Source: an uncultured Thermoplasmata archaeon (GTDB lineage Archaea > Thermoplasmatota > Thermoplasmata > UBA10834). From it: 64,000 nucleotides of DNA. The DNA lies in assembly GCA_963748615.1 (NCBI GenBank), contig CAVVJQ010000003.1, forward strand, positions 304,599 to 368,598. Reading direction: 5' to 3'. This document shows, piece by piece, positions 4,722 through 44,882 of this stretch (position 1 is the first letter of the stretch; each line of letters starts with the position of its first letter). The notes beneath the pieces are model-generated. The model made no database searches. It was not told the DNA's origin and saw only the letters and a list, made by a program, of their open reading frames with translations. The position numbers and the translations under genes were made by a program.

Positions 4722-5046
4722 ACCCAGATATCGATCTCAGAGCTAGACTTGAGAGATGAAATGCTTCGCAATTCTAGCGTGGCACCATATCGCTCATCGG
4801 GGCATATGGAGTGCACCATAGAAATTCCATGCACGCATCGATGGAATTCATGAGGAAATCAGACAGTCATCGCTTGACCCGCCTTCGCCTGCTGTTGATG
4901 GATACATAAGCGCATTTGTTTTGGTAGCAAAAGAGATGAGAATAGGCTATTGCTTTTCACATTGGGTTTATATAGCATATTTCCTTTTCGAACGTAATGC
5001 ACCTAGTACTGACTCGGTGCCAACCGTGAGGGGGAATTGGACAATT

Positions 5047-7686
5047 ATGAGAGCTAGATATAGTGTGAAGAGAGCAGCAGCTATTCTGACATTCTTATTC
5101 GCGTTCGTACTCGTCGGGACCTCGCTCGGAGCGCTCAGCCTATTCGAGAACGCGTCTGCGGAAGACCTGCTGGGAATTGATGTTGACCGAACTTTCACTG
5201 TCGGCGTGGTGGACATGTCGATCTCCACGCTGAATCCGAACACATATGTGACTAGCAGCGAGGAAATGGTCATCGTCTCATGCTACAGCTCGTTGCTGCA
5301 ATACGATGAGGGCGGCAATGTGATAGGAGACCTTGCGAGGACTTGGACAACGGACCAGGACGGCCTCGTATGGCACTTCGACCTTGTGGATACGGCGTAC
5401 TTCTGCGACCCAATGGAACCGATTTCAAAAAACCACCAAGTCACTGCTGAAGATGTCATCTTCACATATGATAGCATCCAAGATGATGCCACCAGTCGAT
5501 TGCATTACGCTCTTCCGGACATCATTTCGGACATCTATTCTGAAGGGCAGTTCAGCGTGACAATTGAGCTCAGTCATCCATTCGCGGCGTTCCAGGATTC
5601 GCTCATCAATATCCCTATACTTCCCAAGTATGTCTGGGAAGGCGAGGACCTGACGAATTTTGACAACCTGCCGATGATTGGATCCGGGCCGTTCTACTAC
5701 GCAACTACGGGACTCCCTGACTCAGGCATCGTCGAGCTCAGAAAGAATCCCATCTGGCACATGACCGAAGAGCATGGATGGTCCATCAGGGTCGACAGAT
5801 GGCTCATCATAAACGAATTGGATACTAGCACGGCTTGGCTAGATGTATCACATGGCAACATAGATTGCATGTTGGATGTCCCAGGCAATGTATTCACATC
5901 CACACTTCCGATGCCGGAAGTCATAGGATTTCACCAGTCTGGAGGGTTTGTGTATGAGTTCAACCTCAACCAGATGACTGATGACATTAGAGAAGGTCTC
6001 GGAGGTCCCTTCAACGCAGGGACTAGTAACCAGCTGCTGCTTGACAGCACGGTCAAGATGGCTATTGCGATGAGTGTCGACAAGGACGCTTTTGTTCAAG
6101 AAGTGATAGATGGTTTGGGAGAGCCGGCGGATTCACTTATTCCTCATGCCAACCCATGGCACTTTGATTATCCAGACCCGATTCAATTCGACCCACTAGC
6201 AGCCAGGGAGATGCTGATGGACGCTGGATGGCGCTATGATATCACCGGAAACCAAGCATCCGAGAACACGGTTCCGTTATGCAAAGCTGGCGGGACGGAT
6301 CCCCTCTCGTTCAGGTTCTATACACTAAACACGGCCGTGCAATGGCAGATAGGTGCAGAGCTAATATTGAACTGGTGCCGCGAGACTGGGGTAGATCTCG
6401 ATCTGACATTCCTGAGCATTAACGAGATGAACACCGTGTGGAATTCCGCAGACTACGATCTTTGGTTGTGGGATTGGGTGTTCGATCCGCTCGGAGACCC
6501 ATCGATGAGCATACTCGAAGTGCTCACGACGGAAGCAATCGGTACCGACAGCGACGTGTTCTACTCCGACTCGACCTATGACGCACTTTACGAAGAGTCT
6601 CTCGTGACAATGGATCCTGTTCTCCGTGCACAGATAATCGATGAGATGCAGACAATGGCCTATGAAGACATGGGTTGCCAATGCATCGCCTACAGAGAAG
6701 ACCTGTACGCGTTCAACACTCAGCATTGGGAGAACTTCGGTGATCTGGACTCGAAGTATATGATGCGGCCTGATGTTTCCAACCTTTGGATATCCTTGAG
6801 CATGAGCCCTGTGGAAAACGCGGCACCCCATATCTATGTGCATTCGGATAACGTCGTCGCAGAGGTTGGCGAGGAAGTGGCCCTCTTCGTAGCCGCGACG
6901 GACGATGACGCTTCGACAGTGCTCGAATACAGATGGTTCTGGGGCGATGGCACTTCCAGCGATTGGAGCTATTCACCCACTGCCTCGCACACATATCTGA
7001 AGAACGGGGTGTATACCGCTGACATCGCAGTGAGAGAGGCATCCTCATCTAATGGGTATGACGACCACTTCGTCACGACCGCTGACCTGACTTTGGCCAT
7101 ATACGATTTCTCCAACGAAGCGCCTGTCATTCTCAGCATAATGTACAGCCCATTGGACCCGGATACATCCAATAGCGTCATGTTCTCTGCAGATGTCTAC
7201 GATTCAGAAGGAGATCCGTTGGAGTACTCGTGGAACTTCGGAGATGGCACTGGGGCGAAGGGACTGAGCGTGACACATGTGTTCCAGGAAGCTTCTGCAT
7301 ATCTTGTGACGCTGTCGGTGACCGACAATATGCTCGGAATCGGAACGAGACCTGCAACATGCTCGGTCCTCGTTATGATCGACTCGAACTTGCCTCCATC
7401 GTTATCGGTGCCTGATTTCGATCCGATAGCGCCCAAGACAGAGACGGAGTTCCATGTGTACGCGAGCGACCCAGATGGGGACCAGCTTATGTTCGTGTGG
7501 GACTGGGGAGATGGCACTTCGACTGAGACATATGAACCGTTTGCGACCCATTCGTACAACCGCGGCGGAACCTATGTCATCAATGTGATGGTCACGGATC
7601 TCACAGGCCTGTCAGGGCATGAGGTACGAGATACCGGAACGGTCTATGTGTACAGCGGCCAATCGAAACACGGCGGCACAAAGTGA
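5047..7686 (+). CDS. secreted family-5 solute-binding protein (Opp/Dpp-like) fused to C-terminal PKD domains
   Basis: Signal peptide MRARYSVKRAAAILTFLFAFVLVGTSLGALS. An SBP_bac_5-like domain is followed by at least 4 PKD repeats with WxFGDG/WxWGDG motifs (WFWGDGTSS, WNFGDGTGA, WDWGDGTST). A TATA-like tttatata lies about 70 nt upstream. The in-frame stretch upstream of 5047 has no signal-peptide logic. Confidence 0.75.
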   Translation: MRARYSVKRAAAILTFLFAFVLVGTSLGALSLFENASAEDLLGIDVDRTFTVGVVDMSISTLNPNTYVTSSEEMVIVSCYSSLLQYDEGGNVIGDLARTWTTDQDGLVWHFDLVDTAYFCDPMEPISKNHQVTAEDVIFTYDSIQDDATSRLHYALPDIISDIYSEGQFSVTIELSHPFAAFQDSLINIPILPKYVWEGEDLTNFDNLPMIGSGPFYYATTGLPDSGIVELRKNPIWHMTEEHGWSIRVDRWLIINELDTSTAWLDVSHGNIDCMLDVPGNVFTSTLPMPEVIGFHQSGGFVYEFNLNQMTDDIREGLGGPFNAGTSNQLLLDSTVKMAIAMSVDKDAFVQEVIDGLGEPADSLIPHANPWHFDYPDPIQFDPLAAREMLMDAGWRYDITGNQASENTVPLCKAGGTDPLSFRFYTLNTAVQWQIGAELILNWCRETGVDLDLTFLSINEMNTVWNSADYDLWLWDWVFDPLGDPSMSILEVLTTEAIGTDSDVFYSDSTYDALYEESLVTMDPVLRAQIIDEMQTMAYEDMGCQCIAYREDLYAFNTQHWENFGDLDSKYMMRPDVSNLWISLSMSPVENAAPHIYVHSDNVVAEVGEEVALFVAATDDDASTVLEYRWFWGDGTSSDWSYSPTASHTYLKNGVYTADIAVREASSSNGYDDHFVTTADLTLAIYDFSNEAPVILSIMYSPLDPDTSNSVMFSADVYDSEGDPLEYSWNFGDGTGAKGLSVTHVFQEASAYLVTLSVTDNMLGIGTRPATCSVLVMIDSNLPPSLSVPDFDPIAPKTETEFHVYASDPDGDQLMFVWDWGDGTSTETYEPFATHSYNRGGTYVINVMVTDLTGLSGHEVRDTGTVYVYSGQSKHGGTK

Positions 7687-12523: not shown

Positions 12524-13690
12524 TCAGACAGATGAGAACACACAGGTGTCAGACCCGGTGGCTATACATGAGATTTCCCTGATGATGACCTTTCGTCCCA
12601 CGGCTCTCGTGACCAGTTCGCTCAGGATCGGCTCGAGGAACCTGCATATGGTATGATCGAAGCGGACGCAGCATCTTGCGAACACGGATTCGATACTGAT
12701 GGTGGTCTCTCCACTGGCCATGTCAATCCGATCTAACGAGTAGAAAGTCGCCCATCCGCTCCGAACCAGCGTCTGCAGGCCACGGTCGATGACCTCCCTA
12801 CCCTGCCCAGAGACATCCTTCGGTCTCAAGGGCACCATTGATTCCAGCATCGCATAGAGTTCCTGCACACCTTTGGCGGATGATTCATGATACTTGGCGA
12901 ACATCGAGGCTAGTCCCTGGATATCGGCTTGGACAAGTAGCGGGGAATCCGATGCCAATTGGCTGGAAGATGATGAATCCGAGGACGGACTGCCTCCTCC
13001 GAATGAGAATGATTCGGGTTGTTGACTTGCGCTGCCCCCTCCACCAGACATCGCATGACCATCACCGCGGTCTTCTCTGCGGAGCTCTTCAGGCTTTACA
13101 CGTCTGTGCCGTCCATCCTCCTTGCCTCTATCATATTCTGCATCCAGTTTTCGGAGGACCCCCAATCCTTGGGCGAGGGACATTAGTTCCTTTCGTTTTG
13201 AGCCCACCCATCCGACCGTCTCCATATGTCCGTAATAACCGACCTCCACCCCCAGTTCGTACCCTTGCTTGAATAAAGAGGTGACTGCTTTTGAAACAGT
13301 GGATCCTGAGGCGGACCTGAGTCTATCATCCCTGAGGGCGTCCTTCATCGCCCGCAACAATTCCTTCCCTTCGAAAGGCTTCGAGATGAAACCAACAGCA
13401 CCTCTTGCCAACGCTATTTCCTTTATCCTGGAATCTGCGCTAAGGAACAGGACCCTCGCAGACGGGTCAGTGGCGAGTATCTCATCCATTGCCTCGATAC
13501 CACTCTTGACCGGCATCCTGTGGTCCATTAGAATCAGGTCGGGTTTGGGTGAGAGTTCAAGGTACTTCTTGACCGCGGAGTCCCCGTCGAAGGCGAACCC
13601 CACCACGTCGAAACCCTTCAAAGAGAGTGTGTCCCTGAGTATCTGGACTATAAGCTTCTCGTCATCGACTATGAGTATCCTCGGTGGCAC
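12524..13690 (-). CDS. response regulator, receiver domain plus C-terminal V4R domain
   Basis: CheY-like receiver (LIVDDE...DLILMDHRMP...K). Gly/Ser-rich linker. C-terminal Cys-containing V4R-like domain (CCVRFDHTICRF...SCIATGSDTC). GTG start abuts the HK stop codon. Confidence 0.7.
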   Translation of the reverse strand: MPPRILIVDDEKLIVQILRDTLSLKGFDVVGFAFDGDSAVKKYLELSPKPDLILMDHRMPVKSGIEAMDEILATDPSARVLFLSADSRIKEIALARGAVGFISKPFEGKELLRAMKDALRDDRLRSASGSTVSKAVTSLFKQGYELGVEVGYYGHMETVGWVGSKRKELMSLAQGLGVLRKLDAEYDRGKEDGRHRRVKPEELRREDRGDGHAMSGGGGSASQQPESFSFGGGSPSSDSSSSSQLASDSPLLVQADIQGLASMFAKYHESSAKGVQELYAMLESMVPLRPKDVSGQGREVIDRGLQTLVRSGWATFYSLDRIDMASGETTISIESVFARCCVRFDHTICRFLEPILSELVTRAVGRKVIIREISCIATGSDTCVFSSV

Positions 13691-27984: not shown

Positions 27985-28950
27985 ATGAATGCAATCAAAC
28001 CAGCTAAATTGACAGAGGGCGCGACCATCGGCATAGTGTCTCCATCGGGCTTCTCAGAACCGTTCGGCCTCGGACAAGCCATCAACTATCTGAAGAGCCT
28101 CGACTACAAGGTCGTGCTCGGGGAGTGCACCAAGAACATCACGCGAAGGGGCTTCAGCTCTGGAAGGGATGAGCAGAGGGCGGATGAGCTTGTCAGCATG
28201 TTCGCGAACGAGGATGTGGATGCGATATTCGCCTCGCGAGGTGGCTATGGCGCGATGCGCATCCTCGACCTGATAGATTTCGATATCATCAAGAGCAACC
28301 CCAAAATATTCCTCGGATACAGCGACATCACTACGCTGCACATAGCAATCCATCAACGCACGGGCCTCGTCACATTCCATGGCCCTTCAATCGAGGGATA
28401 TGCCGGGGACAACCCGGAGAAGGACCCAGCGACAGGAAAGGAGAACATCGATCGAGCATTGGGATTACTCTCTCGCGCGGAGCCTTGGGGGAGGATAGAT
28501 AATCCTCCGAACGGAATGTTGTTGAGGACCGTCGTTCCCGGGAAGGCCAGCGGCAAGATAGTGGGAGGCAACCTCTCGATGATCGTGCATACACTGGGAA
28601 CGGAAGACTCGATCGATACTAACGAGAAGATACTCTTCCTCGAAGATGTCTACGTCTCAGAATATGATATAGATAGGCTGCTGGTGCACATGCACCTTGC
28701 CAGAAAACTCCAGGATACCGCAGGGATCATCTTCGGCCAGATATCCAGCTTCCATAAGAGGGATCTGCCTGGACCGAGCTTGGAGGAAGTCATACAGGAT
28801 ACGATCGGTCGCCTCGATGGCATCCCATCATACTCTGGTCTTTGCTGTGGTCATGGAACCATGAAGGTCGTTATTCCCGAAGGCGTGAGAGCTTCGATGG
28901 ATGCGACCGACCCATCCTTGGTCATCGAAGAGAGTCCGCTCAAGGAGTGA
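27985..28950 (+). CDS. LD-carboxypeptidase (peptidase S66, MccF/LdcA-like)
   Basis: Ser nucleophile context GYSDIT and a C-terminal catalytic His/Glu region. 321 aa is the family length. Confidence 0.8.
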   Translation: MNAIKPAKLTEGATIGIVSPSGFSEPFGLGQAINYLKSLDYKVVLGECTKNITRRGFSSGRDEQRADELVSMFANEDVDAIFASRGGYGAMRILDLIDFDIIKSNPKIFLGYSDITTLHIAIHQRTGLVTFHGPSIEGYAGDNPEKDPATGKENIDRALGLLSRAEPWGRIDNPPNGMLLRTVVPGKASGKIVGGNLSMIVHTLGTEDSIDTNEKILFLEDVYVSEYDIDRLLVHMHLARKLQDTAGIIFGQISSFHKRDLPGPSLEEVIQDTIGRLDGIPSYSGLCCGHGTMKVVIPEGVRASMDATDPSLVIEESPLKE

Positions 28951-29937: not shown

Positions 29938-32900
29938 TCAGAGATTCTGGTCTTCCGGAGGCGCTGGTTCCTCCATCGCGATACCATCGACACCAGAGTC
30001 GTTCGCACCGGACGACTTGCCACCCTTGCCCTTCTTCATAAACATTATGGCAAGAAGAGCGACAATCGCAAGCGCTGCCACGATTCCAATCGGGAGACCG
30101 TACTGCTCGATGAATGTCTTCTCATCGTCGTCGACTGGTTCCTCATTGATCGTGACGCTTACTGTCGCCTCATCAGTCTGGCCGGAACCGTCCCTGACCG
30201 TCAGGGTGACATCGTATGTGTCCGCTACATCGAATGTGAACGAGAACGATGCAGTGTATCTTGTCACTGTAGCATCCTCGTACACGAACGTCCAGGTGTA
30301 GTTCACTATGCCGATATCATCAGATGATCCAGTGCCGCTGAAGGTAACCGATGTCCCGACTGTCGCTGATGCAGGTGTCACTGTCGCAACTGCTGTCGGA
30401 TCTGCATCCGTAGAAGACGCCTCCACGGTGACCGTCACAGTTGTGGTGTCGTAGTTCCCGGCAGCATCTGTCACATTCAAGGTCACGATGTAGGCACCTG
30501 CGATGTCGAACTCGAACGAGACCGTCGCACCATCCAACGATACCGGAGCACCGTTGTAGGTGAAAGTCCAAGTGTAGCTATCGATACCCACATTGTCAGT
30601 CGAAGTCGTTCCAACGAATGTGACTGTCGCTCCTGCATCGACCTCTGTCGCGCTAGCGGAAGCATCAGCAACGGGAGACTGTGTATCCAAGACCGTCACC
30701 GTCACTGTCGCGGTGTCGCTGTTCCCTTCGTCGTCGGTCACTGTCAAGGTTATCTCGAATACTCCAGCGTTCTCGAAGGTGTATTCGACTGTCTCGCCGA
30801 TCAATTCGACTGCCACGCCGTCGGTGAAGGTCCACACGAAGTCCATCTCATCGTCGTAGTTGTCGCTGGACCCAGATCCATCCAGAGTCACCGTCGCATC
30901 CATATCGACTTCAGATTCGGAAGCTTCTGCGACCGCGACTGGAGCTTCTGTGTCACGAACGATTATGTCTATCTCGTCGGAGCCCTCGTTGTCCATCGCA
31001 TCCTTGGCCACAAGGGTCACAGTGTACGAACCGGGCGTATCGAACTGGTAGGACATGGACTCACCATAAAGGGTCACGATGACCTCATCCACCAGTGTCC
31101 AAGTCCAATTGACCACATCGACATTGTCACTTGAGCCGGATCCATCGAATGTGACTGTATCACCCATGTCAACATCCATGTCATCGGCCACTGCAACAGC
31201 GGTTGGGTCCGTTGCATCAGTGATCGTGACTGAGACCACATCTGGATCAGACTCCTGATCAATGGTGTCACGGACCACCAGGGTCACTGTGTATGTACCG
31301 ACATCCAGGAATTCGTACTCCGGCTGCGAACCGTACAGCGTGACCGACAGCTCCTCGATCACCCAGGTCCAGTTGACGACAGGGCCTGCATCATCGGAAG
31401 AACCCGTGCCATCGAACATGACGAGTTCATCCTCGGGTGCGGTTATGTCTTCACCTGCATCTGCGACGGGTGGAGCATCCGCCACGACCTCAATCGTTGC
31501 GGACGCGCTCACGTTGTGGCTCATTCCATCATCGACATATACCCGGCAAGTGTGCGTTCCGATTGTGTCGTACGCGTAGTCTACATCCTGACCAACAAGG
31601 AGGACGCTACCGTCGTCGTAGAAGTCCCACGTGTATGTCAGATCATCTTCGTCAGGATCGCTGGCATCTGCGTAGTATCCAGTCGTTTGACCTACAGCGA
31701 CAGTCTTGTCCGCGGGGTAGGTCGTGAATTCCGGCTCATAGTTGATGCCTGCAGGGCGGACGGTCGTCTTCGCACTGCTGGTCACATTGTGACTCGACAG
31801 CGAGAAGCCGTCATACACCCATACCTGGCGAGTGTAGTTGCCGACGACGGTGTATGTATGGGTTATCGAATTGCCGACGAAGTACCCTGTGCCATCGCCA
31901 AAGTCCCATGTGTATACGAGCGCTTCACCATCTGCATCAGTCGCGACTGCAGTGTACGTACGAGAGACATCTTGCGTCACGTTGATCCAGGTCAATGAAT
32001 TCAATACAGGTTTAGCGTTGATGAACGCATATCCTGCGGCAGATTCATTGTAACCCTTATTATCATCGGCCCACACCCGGTACACGTATCCATCCTCAGC
32101 TGAGGATTGGGTGTAGGTATGCGTAGTTGATCCACTCGTTGTCACAGATACCTTCTCATCGCCCCAATACCAGGTGTACTTCAGAGAGTCAGAGTTGGGG
32201 TCGACCACATCGACGGAGAACGAGGTCGCCTCATTTGTCGTACCGTATACCGTTGCAGGGTCCTCCTGGAATTCTGGAGGATCATTTGGCAGAACGACCA
32301 CGGATAGCTCAGATGAGACATTCGCTGCGCCGTCGGATGCATGCATATACACAGTGTGGGTTCCAGCAGCCTCATACGAGTGGGTGGTCGAGCATTCGAC
32401 CACCGAACCGGTTCCCGCAAAGTGCTCCACATAATAGCTTCCGTCACCGAATTCGAAGGTTATCGTCAACGGGTCTTCGTCCTTGTCGCTCGCGAGTCCG
32501 ACGAATACCAGGTCTTCACCACAATATGTAGCAGCGGGCGTTGAGTCCGTTATGGTGAACCCCTGGATGACCGGAACCTTGTTCGACATCGTGATGACGC
32601 TCACAAGTCCCGAATCCGAGACATTGTGATTATCCAGACCCGTCAGATCATCTACCCACACCGTCAGCGTGTACGTTCCTCTCGAATTGTAGGCATGGTC
32701 CGCTGATGAAGTGGTCGTGACGGAGAATTCCCCGTCGCCCCAATACCACGTATACCGCAGTTCATCCCTAGAATCTGGGTCGCTCGCCGTCGCGGTGTAA
32801 GTGTAGGTCTGCTTCGCGATCTTGTTCGCGTAGTCGGGAACCGTCACGGTTGGAACCCTGTTGGAAGTGACCGGCACATAGGCGTATCCCATCGTCGGCC

Positions 32901-35322
32901 TGTCGACCGCACCGATGTGCTTGTCATCGACAGAGACTGATACCGTAAAGGATGTCGCCGTGAGGAATTGGTGCGTGACCGTCTGTCCACCCAATATGCC
33001 TCCATCGCCGAAGTTCCATGTGTAGTAGAGAGTGTCGGCCTCCTCGTCGGTAGCGACACAAGAGAAGGTTATCTCAGTACCAGTGTCGGGATCGACTGGA
33101 TCAACGATGATCTCCTGGATGACCGGCTCGGCATTGGTCATATCCCTGACAGTGACCGTCGCCTTGGTCCATGTCATGAAGCCATCATCGAATCCATTAG
33201 ACAGACCATTCTCATAGACAGCGATGTAGACAGTGTATACACCGTCCGCATCATATGTGTGAGACATCGAAACGGTCCCGGTTTCATCAACGAGCACATC
33301 GGACGTCGCGCTGCCATCGCCCCAGAACCACTTCATTCTGAGCGGGGTCGTGTCATCATCATCGGAGACAGTAGCGCTAAACCCATTGATCGGTGTATTC
33401 ATGTCACCAGTCAGGGCAGCAGTGTATCCGTTGAATTGAGGAGCCTCATTGTCGGTCGGCTGCACCCTCATTCCGAGGTACTGGAATGTGACATCCGGAA
33501 GCAGCATGTAGGTGCTGTTCCAGTCACCGTAGTTCGACCAGTACTTCGTGCTAGCTGCGTACAGATCCTTCCTGAAGGCAATGCATTGGCAACCCATGTT
33601 CTCGTATGCCATCCTCTGCATGTCGTTTACAATCTCACGCCTGATCGAGGGATCCATGGTAACGAGACTCTCATTGTACAATGCATCGTAGGTCGCGTTC
33701 GACCAGTACACATCACTGTCTATGCCGATCGAATCGGTCGTCAAGACAGACAACACGCCAGTACATGGATCGTTCAATGGACCGAATATCCAGTCCCACA
33801 GCCAGATGTCGTAATCGGCTGCGTACCAGTAATTGGTCAATGTAGTACCGCTCACAAGCTCCAGATTGAGCTTGATACCGGCATCCTCCGTCCAGTTCAC
33901 AATCATTCTGGCGCCCTCTTCCCACTCTGTGGCAGAGTTGAGACTGTAGAACCTGAATTCGAGCGGATCGCCGAATCCACCAGTCGGCAGCGCCCTGTAC
34001 AATGGACACGTGTCGTCGGTCGCGGCCTTCCCCAGCGCATCATACTTCCAACCCGCATCGTTCAAGATAACACGAGCAGCAGCGGGGTCGAATGGAATCT
34101 GACTCTCACCATCTACGCTACCGTACTCGTAGTACCAAGGATTCACGTCAGGGACCAGAGATGTGGCAACGCTTCCGAGATCCTCCAACACTTCATGTAT
34201 GAAGTTGGGTTTATCAACGCACATCGCAATCGCCAGCTTGACCTCGTCTATCAGCAGCAGCTGGCTGTTCGTTCCACTCTTGGTAGTGCCGCCGAGCTGT
34301 GCTCTGAGATCATCGGTCATCTGGTTGAGGTTGAACTCATAGACGAATCCTTGGCTCTGGGCGAATCCAAGGACATATGGCGTGACATCCGCCTCGGACA
34401 CGTAGACCGAGGGGGAGACGCCGAGCATGACATCGATCGTACCGTCCTTGACATCCTGCCATGCAGTGCTCGCTTCGAGTTCACCCACGATGAAAAGCTG
34501 ATCTATATGCATCTGCCACCCACAGTTCTCTTCCATATACCAGTTCGGATTCCTTCGGAGCTCAACTGTGTTGGTAGTCGGCAGGCCGTCAGTGGCGTAG
34601 TACCATGGGCCTGAACCCACTGGGGGCAGATTGTCGAAATTCTGAGGGTTAACAGTCTCCCATATGTACTTCGGCAGAATCGGCATTGTGAATATATCGT
34701 TGTACGGTGCATATGGCTTGCACAATGTGAGAATCATCTCGTAATCGTTAACCTTTACCATCGAACCAACCGCATCGCCCATGCTTCCGTGGAGTCGGCT
34801 CAGATCGTTGTCCTGATACATCCACAACGACCATATCACATCGTCTATCGTGAGGTGTCTTGACTCCTTCACGATAGGGTCGGTGGGGTCAGGATCAGTT
34901 GGATCGCAGAAGTAGACGTTATCCCATATTTTGAAATTCCATGTCAATCCATCAGGGGTAGAACTCCATTCGTAAGCAAGATCCCCGATGACGTTATTGT
35001 CCACATCTCTTTGAAGAAGCGCGCTGTACAAACTCCAAATCACCATGGCCTCGGCCATCCAGGTATATGTATTCGGATTCAGAGTTGATATCGTCAGCTC
35101 ACCGCTCAGGCCCACCACAAATTGGCTTCGCTCGCGTTCGGCCGCGCTCGCCTCATCAACAATCTTCACGGCATCTCCGCCTGTAAGGAAGGACGGGATA
35201 CCGACCATCAATATCGCCAGGACAACTGCGAGTAGAGTCTTGGTCGCTCTTGCCCTGAATATGTTCCTACTCTTGCCAATACTATCCATCATTGATTCCC
35301 CCATTCGTACATCAGATTCCAA
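29938..35322 (-). CDS. giant membrane-anchored surface protein: signal anchor + family-5 solute-binding (Opp/Dpp-like) domain + ~12 PKD domains + C-terminal TM and short cytoplasmic tail
   Basis: 1794 aa. N-terminal TLLAVVLAILMVGIPSFL. An SBP_bac_5-like ~600-aa domain paralogous to the 5047-7686 product. Repeated WxFGDG/WxWGDG and VNWTW PKD motifs. Thr/Val-rich stalk. C-terminal LPIGIVAALAIVALLAIMFM followed by KKGKGGKS. TATA-like element ~65 nt upstream. Confidence 0.85.
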   Translation of the reverse strand: MESDVRMGESMMDSIGKSRNIFRARATKTLLAVVLAILMVGIPSFLTGGDAVKIVDEASAAERERSQFVVGLSGELTISTLNPNTYTWMAEAMVIWSLYSALLQRDVDNNVIGDLAYEWSSTPDGLTWNFKIWDNVYFCDPTDPDPTDPIVKESRHLTIDDVIWSLWMYQDNDLSRLHGSMGDAVGSMVKVNDYEMILTLCKPYAPYNDIFTMPILPKYIWETVNPQNFDNLPPVGSGPWYYATDGLPTTNTVELRRNPNWYMEENCGWQMHIDQLFIVGELEASTAWQDVKDGTIDVMLGVSPSVYVSEADVTPYVLGFAQSQGFVYEFNLNQMTDDLRAQLGGTTKSGTNSQLLLIDEVKLAIAMCVDKPNFIHEVLEDLGSVATSLVPDVNPWYYEYGSVDGESQIPFDPAAARVILNDAGWKYDALGKAATDDTCPLYRALPTGGFGDPLEFRFYSLNSATEWEEGARMIVNWTEDAGIKLNLELVSGTTLTNYWYAADYDIWLWDWIFGPLNDPCTGVLSVLTTDSIGIDSDVYWSNATYDALYNESLVTMDPSIRREIVNDMQRMAYENMGCQCIAFRKDLYAASTKYWSNYGDWNSTYMLLPDVTFQYLGMRVQPTDNEAPQFNGYTAALTGDMNTPINGFSATVSDDDDTTPLRMKWFWGDGSATSDVLVDETGTVSMSHTYDADGVYTVYIAVYENGLSNGFDDGFMTWTKATVTVRDMTNAEPVIQEIIVDPVDPDTGTEITFSCVATDEEADTLYYTWNFGDGGILGGQTVTHQFLTATSFTVSVSVDDKHIGAVDRPTMGYAYVPVTSNRVPTVTVPDYANKIAKQTYTYTATASDPDSRDELRYTWYWGDGEFSVTTTSSADHAYNSRGTYTLTVWVDDLTGLDNHNVSDSGLVSVITMSNKVPVIQGFTITDSTPAATYCGEDLVFVGLASDKDEDPLTITFEFGDGSYYVEHFAGTGSVVECSTTHSYEAAGTHTVYMHASDGAANVSSELSVVVLPNDPPEFQEDPATVYGTTNEATSFSVDVVDPNSDSLKYTWYWGDEKVSVTTSGSTTHTYTQSSAEDGYVYRVWADDNKGYNESAAGYAFINAKPVLNSLTWINVTQDVSRTYTAVATDADGEALVYTWDFGDGTGYFVGNSITHTYTVVGNYTRQVWVYDGFSLSSHNVTSSAKTTVRPAGINYEPEFTTYPADKTVAVGQTTGYYADASDPDEDDLTYTWDFYDDGSVLLVGQDVDYAYDTIGTHTCRVYVDDGMSHNVSASATIEVVADAPPVADAGEDITAPEDELVMFDGTGSSDDAGPVVNWTWVIEELSVTLYGSQPEYEFLDVGTYTVTLVVRDTIDQESDPDVVSVTITDATDPTAVAVADDMDVDMGDTVTFDGSGSSDNVDVVNWTWTLVDEVIVTLYGESMSYQFDTPGSYTVTLVAKDAMDNEGSDEIDIIVRDTEAPVAVAEASESEVDMDATVTLDGSGSSDNYDDEMDFVWTFTDGVAVELIGETVEYTFENAGVFEITLTVTDDEGNSDTATVTVTVLDTQSPVADASASATEVDAGATVTFVGTTSTDNVGIDSYTWTFTYNGAPVSLDGATVSFEFDIAGAYIVTLNVTDAAGNYDTTTVTVTVEASSTDADPTAVATVTPASATVGTSVTFSGTGSSDDIGIVNYTWTFVYEDATVTRYTASFSFTFDVADTYDVTLTVRDGSGQTDEATVSVTINEEPVDDDEKTFIEQYGLPIGIVAALAIVALLAIMFMKKGKGGKSSGANDSGVDGIAMEEPAPPEDQNL

Positions 35323-35619
35323 ATCATCGTGCGAATCTATTCGAAATCCTATTTATTCCATCATTCAACTTGAGTTTTATAGAGAAGTCGCACTAATCGA
35401 AATTGACCATGTACCGTAATCAGCAGGTCTAAGGCTCTGCGCGACTGGTGACCGCATCCGACCGCACTACTCCCCCGTGCCCTCTTAGAGAAGGACTAAG
35501 GAGTTAAGCTCGGGGCGCTATAAAATCCTTTTGAATATTGTCCATCGTATGATTGTCATCCAAGGGCATCATAGCGCAATACTGGCGCATCAGATTGCAT
35601 CTCGGAAGATAACGTACAA

Positions 35620-35650
35620 CCTGCACGGGTTCGAACGGCGGTCCGAACCG
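35620..35650 (-). terminator. imperfect hairpin downstream of the oppC-like gene
   Basis: ggttcgaac-ggcg-gtccgaacc is an 8/9-bp stem located 45 nt after the OppC-like stop. Confidence 0.3.
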
Positions 35651-35694
35651 TATGAACGGCACCCGCTATGAACGGGCGAGAAGCCTCTTCGAAA

Positions 35695-36654
35695 TCATCG
35701 TTTCCTTAGCTTCGGGTTCATTACCTCATCCAAGGCATATCCGAGCAGCGTGAAGCCCAAGACCACGAACACGATGCAGAGACCTGGCATTATGATCCAA
35801 TAGTGAAGGCCAATATGGAACGCACCCTGGCTGAACGCGTGGCTAAGCATGGTGCCCCAAGTCACGACGCCGATAGGTCTCATTCCGAGGAAACTCAGGG
35901 TCGCCTCCGACAATATGGATATCGCGACCGTCAAGATGGTGTTGGCGAACACCAGAGGGAATGAATTCGGGAGGATATGTCTTCGGATGATCTGCATGTC
36001 CCCCGAACCGATGGCACGAGCTCGCTCGATATACTGCCGCTCTTTGATCGAAAGCACCTGGGAACGGACCAGACGAGCGGTTCCAGACCATCCGGTCAGT
36101 CCAATGATCAGGATGATACCTGTGAGATTGATCTCTCCAAGGAACGCAGCTATGATGATCATAAGGACGAGCCATGGGATTGACAGAACGATGTCGTTGA
36201 GCCTCATGATGACCTCGTCCTTCCAACCCCCTACATAACCCGAGTATAGACCGATCAGCGCGCCAAGGAATGATGCAATCATCGCGGAGACTACGCCGAC
36301 GATGATGGAGGTCCTGGCACCATACAGAAGCTGACTGAATATATCGAACCCGAAAGCGTCCGTGCCCATGATATGTTCGCTAGATTGAGGCAGCAAGTCT
36401 TCGAACTGCCCCACGCCTTCCGGATTCACTGTGTAAGGAGCTAGGTAGGGTCCGAACGCCGCAATCAATGCGAAGAAAACCAACAGGCAGATTCCGATTA
36501 GACCCATCGGATTCCTCAGTACCTGCTTGGTCATCTTGCGCCAATTATGAAGCGTCAGTCGAATCTTCTCGTGGGTGACATCGGAGAGTATGCCCTTCCT
36601 GGAAGCTTTGCCTTTGTTGGTGTTATCACTTTCCATTTGGGTCACCTCACGCAA
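35695..36654 (-). CDS. ABC peptide/nickel transporter permease (OppC/DppC-like)
   Basis: 319-aa protein with a BPD_transp_1 core and an N-terminal OppC-type extension. Overlaps the upstream permease by 8 bp. Confidence 0.85.
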   Translation of the reverse strand: MREVTQMESDNTNKGKASRKGILSDVTHEKIRLTLHNWRKMTKQVLRNPMGLIGICLLVFFALIAAFGPYLAPYTVNPEGVGQFEDLLPQSSEHIMGTDAFGFDIFSQLLYGARTSIIVGVVSAMIASFLGALIGLYSGYVGGWKDEVIMRLNDIVLSIPWLVLMIIIAAFLGEINLTGIILIIGLTGWSGTARLVRSQVLSIKERQYIERARAIGSGDMQIIRRHILPNSFPLVFANTILTVAISILSEATLSFLGMRPIGVVTWGTMLSHAFSQGAFHIGLHYWIIMPGLCIVFVVLGFTLLGYALDEVMNPKLRKR

Positions 36655-37666
36655 TCTTGATCCTTGGGTCGATGTAAAGCAGAATCACATCAGCGAATAG
36701 GTTCGCTAACACGACCGCAGCGCCACCTACGACAATTATGAATTGCAGGATCGGGAAGTCCCTGTTGTAGATGGCATTTAGAGTTCTGTACCCGATACCA
36801 GGATAATTGAAGATCACTTCGACCTGATACGCACCGCCGATTACGAACGCAATGCCCATCGCGATCAGTGTGACCATCGGAGCCATACCGTTCGGTAGCG
36901 CATGTCTTCTCAGGACCATGTAGTCCGTCAACCCTTTCGCCCTCGCGGTCGTGATGAAATCCTCAGTCATGACATCGACGAGCGAACTCCTCATGACCAG
37001 AGACACGCCTGCCAAGGACCCGATCGACAACGTCAGAGCCGGTAGTATCAGATGCTCGAGGACGCTCAGCACGATCGGGAGCTCCCATTTGAATGTCGGA
37101 CCATAGGTGATGGTGTCGAAATACCTGCCAGTCGGCAGCTGTGGCCACCAATCCATCCCAAGCGGGTAGGAATTGAACAGAATCTGCAGTATGATGGCGA
37201 ACCAGAATATCGGCATGCCGTAGAAGAACAAGGATACTCCTGTCGATGAGAAGTCGAACGCACCACCCCTACGATATGCAGAATATGCGCCCACGGCCAT
37301 GCCGATGAGGGTCGTGAAGACGGTCGACGTCCCGACCAATAATAAAGTCCACCTCATATCGTTGAAAATGATATCTGCAACAGGTCGAGAATTTTGCATG
37401 TAGGATATGCCCCAATCAAGAGTCATCGTGTTCTTCATGTACACGATATATTTCTCGGGAAGGGATGCGTTCAGGTGGAACCGTTCCATCAAATCATACT
37501 TTAGAGCCTCGTTGAACTTCGGATCCCTTGGGACCATGGTATCGATGGGATTACCAGGCATCCAGTGAATCAGCAAGAAGTTCAATGTCATGATCCCAAG
37601 AATCGTTATGATTGCGAAGATCGACCGCTTGATTATCATCTGTCTAAACGAACGGGATGCCATCAA
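36647..37666 (-). CDS. ABC peptide/nickel transporter permease (OppB/DppB-like)
   Basis: 339-aa protein with a BPD_transp_1 permease core (EAA-like loop region ...ARAKGLTDYMVLRRHALPN). Confidence 0.85.
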   Translation of the reverse strand: MMASRSFRQMIIKRSIFAIITILGIMTLNFLLIHWMPGNPIDTMVPRDPKFNEALKYDLMERFHLNASLPEKYIVYMKNTMTLDWGISYMQNSRPVADIIFNDMRWTLLLVGTSTVFTTLIGMAVGAYSAYRRGGAFDFSSTGVSLFFYGMPIFWFAIILQILFNSYPLGMDWWPQLPTGRYFDTITYGPTFKWELPIVLSVLEHLILPALTLSIGSLAGVSLVMRSSLVDVMTEDFITTARAKGLTDYMVLRRHALPNGMAPMVTLIAMGIAFVIGGAYQVEVIFNYPGIGYRTLNAIYNRDFPILQFIIVVGGAAVVLANLFADVILLYIDPRIKIA

Positions 37667-39747
37667 CGATCACCTCTAGACACTTCGGTTCTCATTGCCT
37701 CGCGCGGTATATCGGTTCTCCTTCTCAGCATATTTCTAAGGGCAGCCTTGTCGGAAACGTACTTTTCCTTGAGGGCGGACCTGGCTCCATCATCCTTCGC
37801 GGATGCTCGCGCTTTCCGATATGACGTCTTCAGATCCTTCATTCGAAGCCTATACTCATCGAGAGTCATTCCATGCTGATCAAGCCACTTCCTGTAGCGA
37901 CCAAGAATCAACGCGCGCAGGGCAAGCCCACCGATCGATCCGAACAATATCAAGAGACCAACATAGTCCCATTCATCCCAGACACGGTCCGCTCTGGGAG
38001 CGAAGTTCGAGACTACAACTCGCATCGTGTAAGAGATATTGTGGAATCCGATACCGATCTGATTATCAGTAATCCAGACCATTGGATGGTATTCATTGGA
38101 CAAATCGTATGTGTAATTGACGGTGATCGTTACGTTCCCACTTGAATCGTAATCCGTCGTCTGAATGTGCATGATACTACTGTTGTCATCAAAATCCCAG
38201 TACAGGTCAATGGGGTCCATCTCATTGTCGTGTATTTTGAATGTGAAGGTGACGACAGAACCAGGCAATGCGTAGGTGCGTTCGGACATCCCTAGTGCAA
38301 AGGATACTATGCTCGGAGCCTGGTTCGTCGAATTGATCATGAGCAGAAGATATCTCGTCACTTCATGGCCGTCTCGACCGTCGGTGATGACCACGGTCAC
38401 ATTGTAGATTCCACTCTTGTTGTAGCCGTGGCTCTGGATGAAAGCGAAGGGAGCGGTCCCTCCACTAGATTGCTGAGTGACAGTGTCAGAAGAATCACCG
38501 AAATCCCAGACTGCAGTCATGACGTCCCCATCGACATCGTTGGCCCTCGCGGTGAATGTAACGTTCACCGTCGTGTTGACATCGTCGAGTATCAGTGTCG
38601 GTGCGGTGTAGCTGATGACCATCATGGCCAGTGGCGCATAGTTCAGCGTCACTGTGACCTTGGCTCTCACGGATATATTATGAGGGAATATCTGGTCAGG
38701 AATCAATGCATCACTGACGTAGAGGGTGACCGTGTAATTGCCGACTTCCTCGAAAGTGTGAGTGATATTGAGCGAGAGATTCGTGCCGGGAGGAGCAACA
38801 TCAGTATGGTAGACCTCGGTGTGATAGATGCTTACGCTGTTGTTGAATGTGAATGTCCATGTCAGAGCCTCACCCTCGAGATCCAGAGCAGAAGCATAGA
38901 AGGTCACTTCACTCATCGGACTCGACTCGTTCTTCGATGAGACTAGGGTGATGTTCGGCACGAAATTGTAGGGCAGGTTGATCGTCACATTTGTCAGGGA
39001 TGATATCATGTGCCCCTCGGAATCTTCGACTGTTACAGTCAACCAATAGTATATCGGGTCCGCCTCATTCCAGCCAGGAGCGACATCTGGATCCCATGTG
39101 TGTGTCTGATTCGCATAGACGCCTGATGCGGCGGGTCCGGTCGAGTTCGTGGCCACAGGCGATCCGTCACCGAAATCCCAGGTTACCGTCAGCTCGTCAT
39201 CATCAACGTCTTCCACACCAACGCTCAGGTTCACGGGGACTCCCGGATCGGCTGTCATTCCAGTAGGTAGACGGCGAGTGAAACTCGGAGGTGCATTCTC
39301 CACTACATAGACCAGAATCGTCTCGCTAACGGTGTTCGTTCCGTCACCCACGTACAGCTTAGCCTGGAAACATGTTCCTTGGGTGTAACTCAGGTTGCCG
39401 ATGTGGTCGTAGGTGAATTTCGTCACTATCGAGCCAGGATTAACAGTATTGTTGACTGAATATGGACTCTGAGTGTTGTTCGTGCTGTTGGCGAGTCTTG
39501 CATCGTAGAATATTGTGAAGGTAAGAGAAGAAGAAACATCGCTCGATGCGTTTGCATAGAATGTCACCTCATCCCCAACATATACGCGAGATGGACTGGC
39601 GACGAAATTGATGATTGTGCTTGCCTCGATGCGCGCAGGAATCTCAGACGGCTCTATATCATTCGTGAAAGGAATTGGCATGATGCCCATGATGGGCGAG
39701 ATCAGTGAGACCGACAGGAAAAGGACGGCCACCGAGATTTGGGTCAT
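37663..39747 (-). CDS. PKD/Ig-like repeat surface protein with C-terminal TM anchor and basic coiled-coil cytoplasmic tail
   Basis: Signal peptide MTQISVAVLFLSVSLISPIMG. PKD motifs VTWDFGDGSP, AVWDFGDSSD, LYWDFDDNSS. TM segment LLILFGSIGGLALRALILG followed by an Arg/Lys-rich tail. 4-bp overlap with the oppB-like gene. The alternative upstream start at 39915 would add a 56-aa non-signal leader. Confidence 0.7.
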   Translation of the reverse strand: MTQISVAVLFLSVSLISPIMGIMPIPFTNDIEPSEIPARIEASTIINFVASPSRVYVGDEVTFYANASSDVSSSLTFTIFYDARLANSTNNTQSPYSVNNTVNPGSIVTKFTYDHIGNLSYTQGTCFQAKLYVGDGTNTVSETILVYVVENAPPSFTRRLPTGMTADPGVPVNLSVGVEDVDDDELTVTWDFGDGSPVATNSTGPAASGVYANQTHTWDPDVAPGWNEADPIYYWLTVTVEDSEGHMISSLTNVTINLPYNFVPNITLVSSKNESSPMSEVTFYASALDLEGEALTWTFTFNNSVSIYHTEVYHTDVAPPGTNLSLNITHTFEEVGNYTVTLYVSDALIPDQIFPHNISVRAKVTVTLNYAPLAMMVISYTAPTLILDDVNTTVNVTFTARANDVDGDVMTAVWDFGDSSDTVTQQSSGGTAPFAFIQSHGYNKSGIYNVTVVITDGRDGHEVTRYLLLMINSTNQAPSIVSFALGMSERTYALPGSVVTFTFKIHDNEMDPIDLYWDFDDNSSIMHIQTTDYDSSGNVTITVNYTYDLSNEYHPMVWITDNQIGIGFHNISYTMRVVVSNFAPRADRVWDEWDYVGLLILFGSIGGLALRALILGRYRKWLDQHGMTLDEYRLRMKDLKTSYRKARASAKDDGARSALKEKYVSDKAALRNMLRRRTDIPREAMRTEVSRGDR

Positions 39748-40151
39748 GCGATTGTTCTTTCTCTTCGACAAATCAGCTGGAATTCCGAGAAAATGAATTC
39801 CTCTGAGCCCCCGACGATCCGAGTCCAAGCTTCTCTTCCCCCTCGAATAAGCGCCCGTACCGTGGATAATGAAGAGTGACCGCATCCACGCAATCGACGC
39901 GCGCCTCGACCGCACGAATGTCCTAACTCTATATAAAAGATAACAACATGATTATAATTATACATAGCACATATTAATTCGGTTCTGAATACAAACATCA
40001 TGTGTCCATCGCATCCGAATCGAACATCTGGATATCACCCACTTGCCTTCATTTTCCAGAGAGAAGTTCATAGTTCGAATAATGAACGAATGCTTGTGAT
40101 AGACACTTCGCCCATCGCATCGATCGCGGAAGGATATCCTCAGGTCCGCCT

Positions 40152-40537: not shown

Positions 40538-40647
40538 CGCGGGGAGGGGGATTTGAACCCCCGAACTCTTTCGAGCACTGGATGTTTGCCTGTCCCATCT
40601 GGGACGAGATAGCAATCCAGCGCCTTGCCGGGCTGGGCCATCCCCGC
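40538..40647 (-). tRNA. tRNA-Ser (anticodon GCU) with 26-nt intron after position 37
   Basis: Acceptor GCGGGGA/TCCCCGC. Anticodon stem CTGGA/TCCAG with loop TTGCTA|intron|A. Long variable arm TGCTCGAAAGAGTTC. T-arm GGGGG-TTCAAAT-CCCCC. Discriminator G. Confidence 0.75.
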
Positions 40648-40956
40648 ATCGATGGCGCATAATAGAACGCCGTTCTTTAATAGTTTGTATCATGGAGCAG
40701 GCCCTTGGCCGAGCGTCTAGCTCTGCAATGACACCTGCCCGATCATGGAACTAGTAGAGTCGTTCAGGATATAGGCAATGTAGTCGACATCCGAATCATG
40801 CGCTCCAGCATCAGTTGCGCGAGAGAAGATTCGTGATGACTCAGTAAATGGCTCGCGAGTCTTGCTGCATCGAGGAACAGCTCAATCGCAGCATACGGAC
40901 ATGAATTAGTTATATTCACGATGCATTTCCAAATAGGACATGTGAGGTGGGACGTG

Positions 40957-42717
40957 ATGGGAGAGATGGACCGAGATGGAGTGACGGAAACTCCGGAGAG
41001 GCCGATCAAAGGATCGGGGACAATCTCTCGCAAACTCCTCGCAGTCATGATTGTAACTGTTCTACTTGGGGCATCAGGCATATTCGTGTGGTATGAGTAC
41101 TTCAGACACTGGGACGTCGATGACCTCAACGATGCGGTCAATGTCATAAACGAGATGGGCCCGATCATCGAAGGGTTCGACACGGATCTCGCTGGAAGGA
41201 CTGTGACTGTCGACGCGGAGGTCAAGGATATCCGAACTCATCAGACGAGTCTGGGGCAACTGAATCTGATATATCTGGTGGGTGGAAGATATGTGGGACT
41301 CATGCAATGGGGACCTATCGATTTCGAGGTCGGCGATTCAATCGAGATGAAAGTCTCCTTCGAGTGGGCCGTTATAAATGGAGTCGAGGGGGTCTACTCC
41401 CCCCAGGCAGTGCTCGGGATCGGCCATCTCGAGCAGATACAAATCATATTCCAGGAGGGGAACTGGGTCTCCTCCGAATGGGTCGCAGAATTGGAGGATA
41501 CGCAGGAGGACGTCATAATCAGAATCATCAAGGTTGGTGAACCGGTTCAACTGTCTATCTGCAATTGCAGCATCAGGGCGGGTGCCAATGTTGGCACCAT
41601 GGAGTACGCGGATTTGCTGGGATATTATGCAGACACACCAGATCTGGACGGTATGTCGGACTTGAAGAACACCGAAGGACCGAACGGCACAATATCATTC
41701 TCTGATGCGAACGACGATGGATATCTGGATGACGGCGATTCGTTCACCCTGCACAATTTGGCCCGGCCGAATACAGCATGCGGAGCGCAGACATATTTCC
41801 TGAGAGTGTCACGGATATTCTATGAGGACGAGGCCCTACCGTATGCTGTGTACCAAGAGCCGCACGTGTTCCATGCATATATCGTCATGACGCAAGAGGG
41901 GGTTCTGTGGGTCACGGATTCGGGAATGCCTCATGCCACGGCATCACTTAGGACCGTTCAGGAAGGGGTGGTGGTCACGATAGATTATACTTCGAAACCT
42001 GTGAGCTGGGATGATATTGCGTTTCTATTCTCCGATGGAATGAACAGCGGGAACTGGCATCCGAACGCGACGGCGCTCATGAGCGATGCTCCAGCGCAAT
42101 ACAGCTGTGGCGTGGAAGATATAAATGAAATGTCAATAGAGTGTATTGTCACGGATCATGCAGGCAATGGTCTCCTCGATGTCGACGATATGATCGAGAT
42201 CGTTGCCGTGGACGGTACCCATCTCAACCGAACAAGATACTCCACAGTCTTCTGCATATGCACGCAATTGTCGACTGCGATGTTCGATGAGTCATTTCTC
42301 TATGATGCCATCCCCGTAAGCGAGTGCGCCATCGTGAACGACGAATATTCGATCGCAGTGACATTCGGTCCAGTCCACAACGGAACCGGATACAATTATG
42401 AATTGATGGATATCTTCTGGGACGAGGTTGTTATCGACATAGGATACGACGAGAACATGGTCGAATGGAACCCCGATGTCTCCATCATGATGACGGGTGT
42501 GCAGACCACTTGGATCTCCGATGGCATCCAGCTCGGAAATATGTCCGTGCTCTGCATCATAGAGGACCTCCAGGGCAACGGACTAGTAAACACAGGGGAC
42601 ACCGTCCAGATCCTCGTCACCTTGGGAGAAGGGTTCAGTCCGGATACGGATTATTCGCTCAGTGTCCATCACATTCCCACGGACTCAGACATCTGCGCGG
42701 TGACGTTCACGGGATGA
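40957..42717 (+). CDS. type-II membrane-anchored extracellular protein with three internal ~130-aa repeats (hypothetical)
   Basis: N-terminal TM LLAVMIVTVLLGASGIFVW. Repeated motif D-x-x-GNG-x-LD-x-GD (DANDDGYLDDGDSF, TDHAGNGLLDVDDMI, EDLQGNGLVNTGDTV). TATA-like ttatatt ~50 nt upstream of this ATG. Confidence 0.55.
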   Translation: MGEMDRDGVTETPERPIKGSGTISRKLLAVMIVTVLLGASGIFVWYEYFRHWDVDDLNDAVNVINEMGPIIEGFDTDLAGRTVTVDAEVKDIRTHQTSLGQLNLIYLVGGRYVGLMQWGPIDFEVGDSIEMKVSFEWAVINGVEGVYSPQAVLGIGHLEQIQIIFQEGNWVSSEWVAELEDTQEDVIIRIIKVGEPVQLSICNCSIRAGANVGTMEYADLLGYYADTPDLDGMSDLKNTEGPNGTISFSDANDDGYLDDGDSFTLHNLARPNTACGAQTYFLRVSRIFYEDEALPYAVYQEPHVFHAYIVMTQEGVLWVTDSGMPHATASLRTVQEGVVVTIDYTSKPVSWDDIAFLFSDGMNSGNWHPNATALMSDAPAQYSCGVEDINEMSIECIVTDHAGNGLLDVDDMIEIVAVDGTHLNRTRYSTVFCICTQLSTAMFDESFLYDAIPVSECAIVNDEYSIAVTFGPVHNGTGYNYELMDIFWDEVVIDIGYDENMVEWNPDVSIMMTGVQTTWISDGIQLGNMSVLCIIEDLQGNGLVNTGDTVQILVTLGEGFSPDTDYSLSVHHIPTDSDICAVTFTG

Positions 42718-43179: not shown

Positions 43180-44646
<1,467 letters not shown>

Positions 44647-44882
44647 TACGCAATCAACGGAGGGGAACTACCCCTCCAACCAGATTTGCAGAAGAAGGCA
44701 TGGTTCCAAGACCTGGAACGCAACTGTCTGCCATCGAACGACCATCATAACTTTTTCATTCACATCGATCAGCTTCAGCTCTTTTGACATTGAACCTGAA
44801 AAGTGCGAAAACGCTCTTGAGCCAATGGATCAAGAAGATAAAACGGTAAGAGGTTTAATGGGTTTTATCTCGACTTCCACCA

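Follow-up and report, generated by a model that had tools for sequence, protein, structure and literature searches.

How does an Opp-type importer of the ATP-binding cassette (ABC) class work if its solute-binding protein (SBP) carries a dozen PKD domains and no ATPase is encoded next to its permeases? The question is raised by a locus in a 64-kb stretch of DNA from an uncultured Thermoplasmata archaeon ("the window" below always means this whole stretch of 64,000 nucleotides, and positions are window positions unless a related locus is named), in which two Opp-like permease genes stand between genes for two PKD-rich membrane proteins: a very large SBP, here called the giant, and a second protein, here called the partner. 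An earlier reading of the DNA (the original prediction) had seen in this arrangement a surface capture or adhesion apparatus coupled to peptide uptake. The answer offered here, which we hold to be moderately probable, is that the locus encodes half of an ABC peptide importer of the Opp/Dpp type (PepT family) whose genes have been split, a form typical of an uncultured, non-methanogenic group of Thermoplasmata. On this view it varies the ordinary Opp system and is no novel kind of machine; three features peculiar to the lineage set it apart, namely 1) a PKD stalk, 2) a PKD partner subunit and 3) ATPases supplied in trans. Automatic labels such as "PKD domain-containing protein" and "ABC transporter substrate-binding protein" hide a coherent system.

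The order of genes on the minus strand is partner, OppB-like permease, OppC-like permease, a 372-bp spacer, and the giant, which is an SBP5::12×PKD::TM protein (TM, transmembrane helix). The corresponding open reading frames (ORFs), 39915..37663, 37666..36647, 36654..35695 and 35322..29938, bear out the order and coordinates of the original prediction. The start codon region of oppB overlaps the stop codon of the partner gene, and the oppC ORF overlaps oppB by 8 nt; partner, oppB and oppC are co-transcribed and translationally coupled. The partner ORF can be extended to a GTG at 39915, and 750 amino acids (aa) had been predicted for it; M57 (39747) is most likely the true start, because a database protein of 694 aa (P0153) is 100% identical to the partner over 694 aa, and the gene (37663..39747) then specifies a single-pass membrane protein of that length. 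The gene for the giant (29938..35304) specifies 1788 aa when read from M7, and 1794 aa when the ORF is followed to 35322.

Is this a chance neighbourhood? Scanning a genome collection with OppB yielded 80 loci, which were mapped by our own ORF calling and by BLAST. Thirty-six of these (clade A) have an OppB 64-97% identical to that of the window, and 25 (clade B), from the same metagenome-assembled genomes, have one of 44-51% identity. Of the clade-A contigs, 34 extend far enough to show what precedes oppB, and in all 34 it is the partner gene, immediately adjacent and in most cases with its stop codon overlapping the oppB start. Downstream, 25 clade-A loci permit the comparison, and in 24 of them OppC is succeeded, ~110-450 bp on, by a gene for an SBP5::PKD protein. 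Three look-ups, for which distant homologues of the partner (33-42% identity) served as queries, showed the same order in database gene calls and precomputed Pfam matches. Locus L083 shares a wider synteny with the window (hydrogenase, Kelch, cassette, GCAxxG, S66). The layout is thus conserved and not a chance neighbourhood. Clade B is arranged differently, as SBP5::PKD (~1280 aa)-OppB-OppC without a partner. A genome may hold several cassettes: JAOTTD has L012, L016 and L020, CP070732.1 has L005 and L019, and clade-B loci come in addition. No published description of the layout, or of SBP-PKD fusions, was found in the literature searched, in agreement with the claim that it is undescribed. 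One copy of the cassette looks decayed: in L079 7986-12128 (CP070736.1) the genes for partner and OppB are whole, but OppC can hardly be recognised and an SBP gene is lacking downstream.

In order, the giant comprises a signal peptide, the SBP5 domain, a PKD array (seven domains of type I followed by five of type II), a TM helix and a short tail. Its solute-binding domain (33448..35139, minus strand; aa ~62-625) matches Pfam SBP_bac_5 at aa 111-519 (E 2e-41). An AlphaFold model of aa 55-640 has a mean predicted local distance difference test score (pLDDT) of 90 and a predicted template-modelling score of 0.86, and resembles the solved family-5 SBPs AapF, NikZ, DppA, GbpA, AppA and MppA with target-normalised TM-scores of 0.71-0.89 (Foldseek). 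The N-terminus is therefore what it had been predicted to be, an extracytoplasmic family-5 (cluster C) SBP of the PepT/Opp-Dpp-Nik importers (TC 3.A.1.5), and the condition that would have refuted the original prediction, an N-terminal region without the SBP5 fold, does not hold. Family and fold are those of the E. coli DppABCDF and OppABCDF systems, and DppA (8z1z) and MppA are structural neighbours of the domain; the E. coli SBPs, however, are soluble and periplasmic, and their ATPases are encoded in the operon. The anticipated count of about 12 PKD domains also proved right: hmmsearch, run with a profile made from the giant's own repeats, counts 12 PKD-like domains between aa 634 and 1726 (30145..33423, minus strand), where Pfam marks 11 PKD_4 and 10 PKD stretches. 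Seven of the 12 are divergent, with WxFGDG cores and NxxP linkers, and five are more uniform (FDGSGSSD); a DNA-level search for recent tandem duplication of these repeats found none.

At its two ends the giant has a signal-like hydrophobic segment (aa 24-46) and a C-terminal TM anchor, predicted earlier and placed by hydropathy at aa ~1738-1765 (30028..30111, minus strand). A conserved AxA motif precedes the SBP domain, which suggests cleavage by signal peptidase I (SPase I) at that point. Archaeal OppA-class proteins have a cleaved N-terminus, a Ser/Thr linker and a C-terminal helix anchor (PMC3387779). The giant is like the Saccharolobus solfataricus and Aeropyrum pernix members of that class (PMC3387779) in combining a family-5 SBP and a signal peptide (with its putative SPase I site) with a C-terminal TM helix and an Opp-type permease, and unlike them in its linker: in place of the glycosylated, Ser/Thr-rich segment it has 12 PKD domains over ~1,100 aa. 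The Thr-rich stalk of the original prediction is absent, since no 40-aa segment of the giant exceeds 35% Ser+Thr. The giant is thus exported and held by its C-terminal helix, with the PKD array replacing the Ser/Thr linker of archaeal OppA.

Nor is it an oddity. Complete SBPs encoded downstream of oppC cluster in length at ~1200-1400 aa and at 1780-1870 aa (the exception, in L005, has 594 aa and no PKD domain), and the giant is therefore a conserved orthologue; its orthologues in L003, L004, L014, L017, L020, L021, L024, L029 and L083 have 1782-1871 aa. The fusion of SBP5 to PKD domains is not special to the giant but the norm in this archaeal group: the window has a second copy and soil relatives have the fusion in canonical operons. 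The second copy, an orphan SBP5::3×PKD gene (ORF 4921-7686, gene 5026..7686, plus strand), specifies a protein without a C-terminal anchor that is 45% identical to the giant across the SBP domain and PKD domains 1 to 3. Such orphan SBP5::PKD proteins of ~885 aa are the best database matches to the giant's SBP domain, and the orthologues P0003, P0011 and P0015 are also orphans. All cassette-linked SBPs that were examined have the C-terminal anchor; the orphan SBPs lack it. (Among the orphan SBP5::PKD3 proteins, namely the copy in the window and P0002-P0020, many end in conserved tails, e.g., SGQSKHGGTK or GNGYQHGGSRG, that might direct sorting or attachment.) The canonical operons, ordered SBP5::PKD-B-C-D-F, are those of the soil Thermoplasmata loci L037-L039, and on the Methanomassiliicoccales-like contig L063 a PKD protein is followed by B-C-D-F, from which it follows that partner-like proteins coexist with normal ATPases. 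(The OppF of L038, at 12931-14718 of that locus, has a hydrophobic insertion of ~150 aa inside its ABC_tran domain, which probably spans the membrane.)

The permeases themselves are unexceptional. OppB (339 aa) matches BPD_transp_1 with E 1e-37, and OppC (319 aa, six TM helices in a TM scan) matches OppC_N and BPD_transp_1 (Pfam); these are two distinct BPD_transp_1 permeases, each with its EAA loop and one with the OppC_N helix. The EAA loop of OppB, TARAKGLTDYMVLRRHALPNG, is conserved across all clades, and that of OppC, ERARAIGSGDMQIIRRHILPNS, is intact. The NCBIfam matches, to Opp2B (216 bits) and Opp4C (253 bits), are family-level, below the equivalog cut-offs. Between the window and L004, oppB and oppC are 93-99% identical at codon positions 1 and 2 and 64% identical at position 3, which implies purifying selection. 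OppB and OppC form a membrane channel with ATPase-docking EAA loops; given the selection on them and the conservation of these loops, they should still dock ATPases.

No ABC ATPase for these permeases is encoded in the 64-kb window, just as the original prediction had it for OppD and OppF at the locus: the sole ABC_tran match (1416-2138) is paired with an ABC-2 (exporter) permease. None is found in flanks of up to 10 kb at any of the 36 clade-A or 25 clade-B loci, and the ATPase pair (ABC_tran plus oligo_HPY) that should accompany Opp permeases is thus not encoded with them. Might the cassette be a decaying, non-functional remnant left by the loss of its ATPases, as their absence from the window and from related loci and the L079 copy, with its degraded oppC and missing SBP gene, could be taken to say? 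That is barely credible when the ORFs are intact, at 65-97% amino-acid identity over dozens of genomes, when the codon positions bear the mark of purifying selection, and when EAA loops, spacer and promoter are all conserved. Might OppBC instead work without ABC ATPases, as an SBP-dependent facilitator, a secondary transporter or a signalling device coupled through the partner or through extra domains? All 61 related permease pairs do lack an adjacent ATPase, many paralogous OppC proteins have an extra region of ~10 TM helices, and the partner has a conserved juxtamembrane cytoplasmic motif. Yet the EAA loops are fully conserved, a TM scan finds no extra domain in the window's own OppC, orphan oppDF loci of matching composition exist, and we know of no ATPase-independent type I ABC importer; the proposal is accordingly very improbable. 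The absent ATPases are best explained by genes located elsewhere, that is, in trans, not by an ATPase-less mechanism.

(The extra polytopic region of the OppC paralogues, found in L012 11031-13013, L024 4799-7054, L021, L015, L005 and L008, has no Pfam match and comes in two forms: an insert of ~340 aa behind TM1, predicted to form roughly 10 TM helices, or an N-terminal extension of ~450 aa, predicted to form roughly 11. The OppC proteins of L019, L029, L084 and L085 bear one or two PKD domains in its place.)

Where, then, are the ATPases? The closest non-archaeal OppB proteins (37-40% identity) are those of Solirubrobacterales and Thermoleophilales (L064, L076 and others), which encode everything in a single operon, S66-SBP5-OppB-OppC-OppD-OppF-S58-M20. 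In nine bacterial relatives the S66 peptidase gene lies directly upstream of the SBP gene. The window retains this linkage: an S66 peptidase gene of the LD-carboxypeptidase/MccF family (27985..28950, plus strand; Pfam Peptidase_S66 and S66C) is convergent with that of the giant, and S66 also lies beside the giant in seven related loci (L003, L004, L014, L017, L020, L024 and L083). The S66 protein of the window has an intact GYSD nucleophile motif and no signal peptide, and is thus cytoplasmic.

A metagenome scan with the OppD of L063 gave 79 loci from the best 80 of more than 600 matches. In nine of these loci oppD-oppF stand together and the nearest 6 kb contain no permease gene; the surroundings are archaeal and conserved: FEN-1, Rpe, MFS, MBL, (DUF1028), OppD, OppF, S58, M20, amidohydrolase. 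Tetranucleotide frequencies of these orphan oppDF contigs correlate at 0.88-0.95 with the clade A/B centroid (leave-one-out median 0.95), a circumstantial link, composition being partly a GC effect; all permease-linked oppD loci in the scan fall in other composition groups. A Thermoplasmata OppD protein search was less helpful, the 120 matches listed (of at least 8000) coming from another clade throughout, and a cassette-bearing contig of 1.06 Mb is not among the best 80 of the more than 600 oppD metagenome matches. With S66 still beside the giant, and S58 and M20 still beside the orphan oppDF, it is simplest to suppose that one ancestral operon has come apart into a capture-and-channel half and a motor-and-peptidase half. 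The bacterial operons have the S66 linkage in common with the window, and the same S58 and M20 genes stand beside the orphan archaeal oppDF; they differ in keeping all the genes together, in having an SBP with neither PKD domains nor C-terminal anchor, and in having no partner.

OppD and OppF would accordingly be supplied from a separate oppD-oppF-S58-M20 locus and would serve several cassettes. The arrangement has precedents in MsmX, MsmK and MsiK, orphan ATPases that each energise several incomplete importer sets (PMC7658222). Those are homodimeric and belong to bacterial sugar importers; here the importer is archaeal and Opp-type, the motor is an OppD/OppF pair, and its sharing would have to be read from gene content: several ATPase-less sets per genome are seen, and orphan oppDF is seen only on metagenome contigs that are not linked to them.

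The two transcription units seem to share their control. Blocks of the non-coding spacer (35323..35694, minus strand) are 86-89% identical to L004, vs 64% at the third codon positions of oppB and oppC. The spacer contains a box resembling a TFB-recognition element (BRE) and TATA box at ~35520-35533 and a TGCGGTC direct repeat at 35450-35466. The 12-mer GGATGCGGTCAC has two exact occurrences in the 64 kb, one in the spacer and one upstream of the partner gene, in the promoter-like region of the partner-oppBC unit (39876..39943, minus strand; TATA-like box 39931-39943, TGCGGTC at 39878-39884 and 39908-39914). Near each copy is a second TGCGGTC, downstream of the TATA-like box. Four of the window's 17 copies of TGCGGTC are in these two leaders, and the TGCGGTC/TATA arrangement is also kept in L003 and L004; the shared motif looks like a common operator for both transcription units. 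The hairpin that had been placed after oppC exists in the form of weak hairpins, but 12 of 200 shuffled sequences fold as well (z -1.79). A structured RNA or riboswitch in the spacer was considered and rejected (no stable fold, z +0.68, and no Rfam match), and a C/D-box sRNA picked out by eye was dropped, its boxes not being conserved in L004. An nhmmer search with the spacer found matches only in the two closest relatives.

The partner is composed of a signal peptide, five Ig/PKD-like domains connected through NxxP linkers, a single TM helix and a cytoplasmic tail of helical structure. Its only Pfam matches are PKD and PKD_4; the AlphaFold model (pLDDT 86.7) has five β-sandwiches at 44-580, the TM helix at 592-624 and helices at 629-676. 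In type its domains match the PKD domains that adjoin the SBP in the giant, and both proteins have the tandem PKD/Ig-like β-sandwiches of PKD surface proteins. A count of 25 N-X-S/T sequons suggests heavy glycosylation. The basic coiled-coil tail of the original prediction is a feature of close relatives, which do have a long basic tail, and not of the family, in which the tail is typically ~30 aa and net acidic: across 77 homologues only ~25 residues after the TM helix are conserved (R.R..LE..G.T.EE.KLR). (Third codon positions of the partner gene are 88.5% identical to L004 3520-5604, against ~64% for the adjoining oppB and oppC, a mosaic that suggests recent recombination at this surface-protein gene.)

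Are the giant and the partner, then, mainly envelope or adhesion proteins, S-layer-like or adhesins, with the SBP serving as a surface receptor and the permeases separate or secondary? Both are long, membrane-anchored PKD/Ig arrays; the partner carries its 25 sequons in 694 aa, and a Foldseek search for a specific structural relative returned generic tandem-Ig matches only (TM <0.25); PKD proteins have, moreover, been proposed as archaeal S-layer candidates (PMC11284389). Against this, the partner stop overlaps the oppB start and the order is invariant in 34 loci, an operator-like motif is common to both units, the SBP domain has its whole fold, the same fusion of SBP5 to PKD occurs in relatives within canonical five-gene operons, and the linkage to S66 goes back to a bacterial transport operon. 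We consider the envelope explanation unlikely, and no evidence was found behind the adhesion apparatus. What remains of the original interpretation is the family-5 fold, the conservation, the lack of oppDF and the peptide role; adhesion finds no support, and the Thr-rich stalk and the basic tail as a family trait fall away.

Returning to the split importer, what might the partner do in it? It would be an accessory subunit at the permease and may hold PKD-tagged SBPs close to it, the unanchored orphans included. The thought of a dock, which is a guess, comes from the resemblance of the partner's domains to the SBP-proximal PKD domains and from the lack of an anchor in orphan SBP5::PKD3 proteins. 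Taken to its limit, it makes of the partner a fifth ABC-importer subunit, a PKD dock beside OppBC that catches the PKD tails of giants and orphan SBPs alike, with the docks sharing one OppDF motor and the whole forming a cellulosome-like surface that harvests D-amino-acid peptides from dead bacterial walls: an improbable picture.

What is imported? Three cytoplasmic peptidase families point to a peptide rather than to nickel or sugar, and the S66 linkage, together with the S66, S58 and M20 genes of the bacterial operons, strengthens the originally proposed role in peptide uptake. S66 includes muramoyl-tetrapeptide LD-carboxypeptidases, and S58 includes enzymes of the D-aminopeptidase type. In E. 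coli, a family-5 SBP (MppA) feeds cell-wall peptides to a cytoplasmic S66 LD-carboxypeptidase (LdcA) in murein recycling. The archaeon makes no murein, so any substrate of this sort would have to be of external origin. The substrate would be a short peptide, possibly with D-amino acids, for example a stem peptide of bacterial cell walls, which the cytoplasmic S66, S58 and M20 peptidases would trim after import; cell-wall-derived or other D-amino-acid peptides are a reasonable guess. Sediments and soils commonly harbour these Thermoplasmata, for which a life on peptides and amino acids has been proposed (bioRxiv 10.1101/2020.03.09.984617).

A cargo other than peptide, either nickel-chelate or oligosaccharide, has its arguments too. 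NikA and NikZ are among the best sequence matches to solved structures, the best NCBIfam match of OppB is a nickel permease model (below cut-off), and the SBP has binders of chitin oligosaccharides among its structural neighbours. Non-peptide cargo of these kinds is known from several Opp-class systems of archaea and thermophiles. With S66, S58 and M20 in the ancestral operon, S66 still beside the giant, and S58 and M20 retained at the orphan oppDF locus, such a cargo seems improbable here.

How would so long a stalk serve transport? At ~4 nm per PKD domain, it would let the binding domain sweep a radius of up to ~45 nm and then return to the permease, and the effective concentration near the anchor would, by estimate, still be in the micromolar range. 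GlnPQ and OpuA also keep an SBP near the channel, but by a short covalent fusion to the permease, where the giant has a separate anchor on a very long PKD stalk and is accompanied by a separate PKD membrane protein.

Several points weigh against a split peptide importer so conceived. The tie of the orphan oppDF to this genome is circumstantial, made of base composition and operon logic, and exact-sequence cluster look-ups for orphan oppDF found no matching contig. ATPase sharing has been reported only for bacterial sugar importers (PMC7658222). An SBP at the tip of 12 PKD domains makes for awkward substrate delivery, and contact of the partner with permease or SBP is conjectural. As to the substrate, binders of nickel, peptides, opines and chitin are all equally good matches to the SBP, so that sequence and fold cannot decide among them, and no NCBIfam equivalog cut-off for a substrate assignment was reached.

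The cassette, present in several copies per genome, may be the main peptide-uptake device of these Thermoplasmata. If true, the proposal would have three consequences: 1) its ATPases would be the first to be shared in an Opp-type importer, and in an archaeal one; 2) a very well-studied class of transporters would acquire a conserved extra membrane subunit; and 3) there would be a testable hint that archaea scavenge bacterial cell-wall peptides.

The rest of the window can be described briefly. It also encodes aEF-1α, aEF-2 and archaeosine TGT, and ~3 kb upstream of the cassette it has a complete archaeal 16S rRNA gene (43180-44647, plus strand; 1500 bits), all of which mark the organism as an archaeon; the rRNA scan, which extended to 45000, gave no 23S match. 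Also upstream of the cassette, on the opposite strand, is an ORF of 598 aa (40921-42717, plus strand) with no Pfam or NCBIfam match, which is 96% identical in L004 and fragmented in L003. An Rfam tRNA match at 40538-40647 (minus strand) spans 110 nt against a 71-nt model and gives no ARAGORN call; it is probably an intron-containing tRNA. Near the orphan SBP gene, in the window as well as in L001, lies an ABC-2 ATPase/permease pair.

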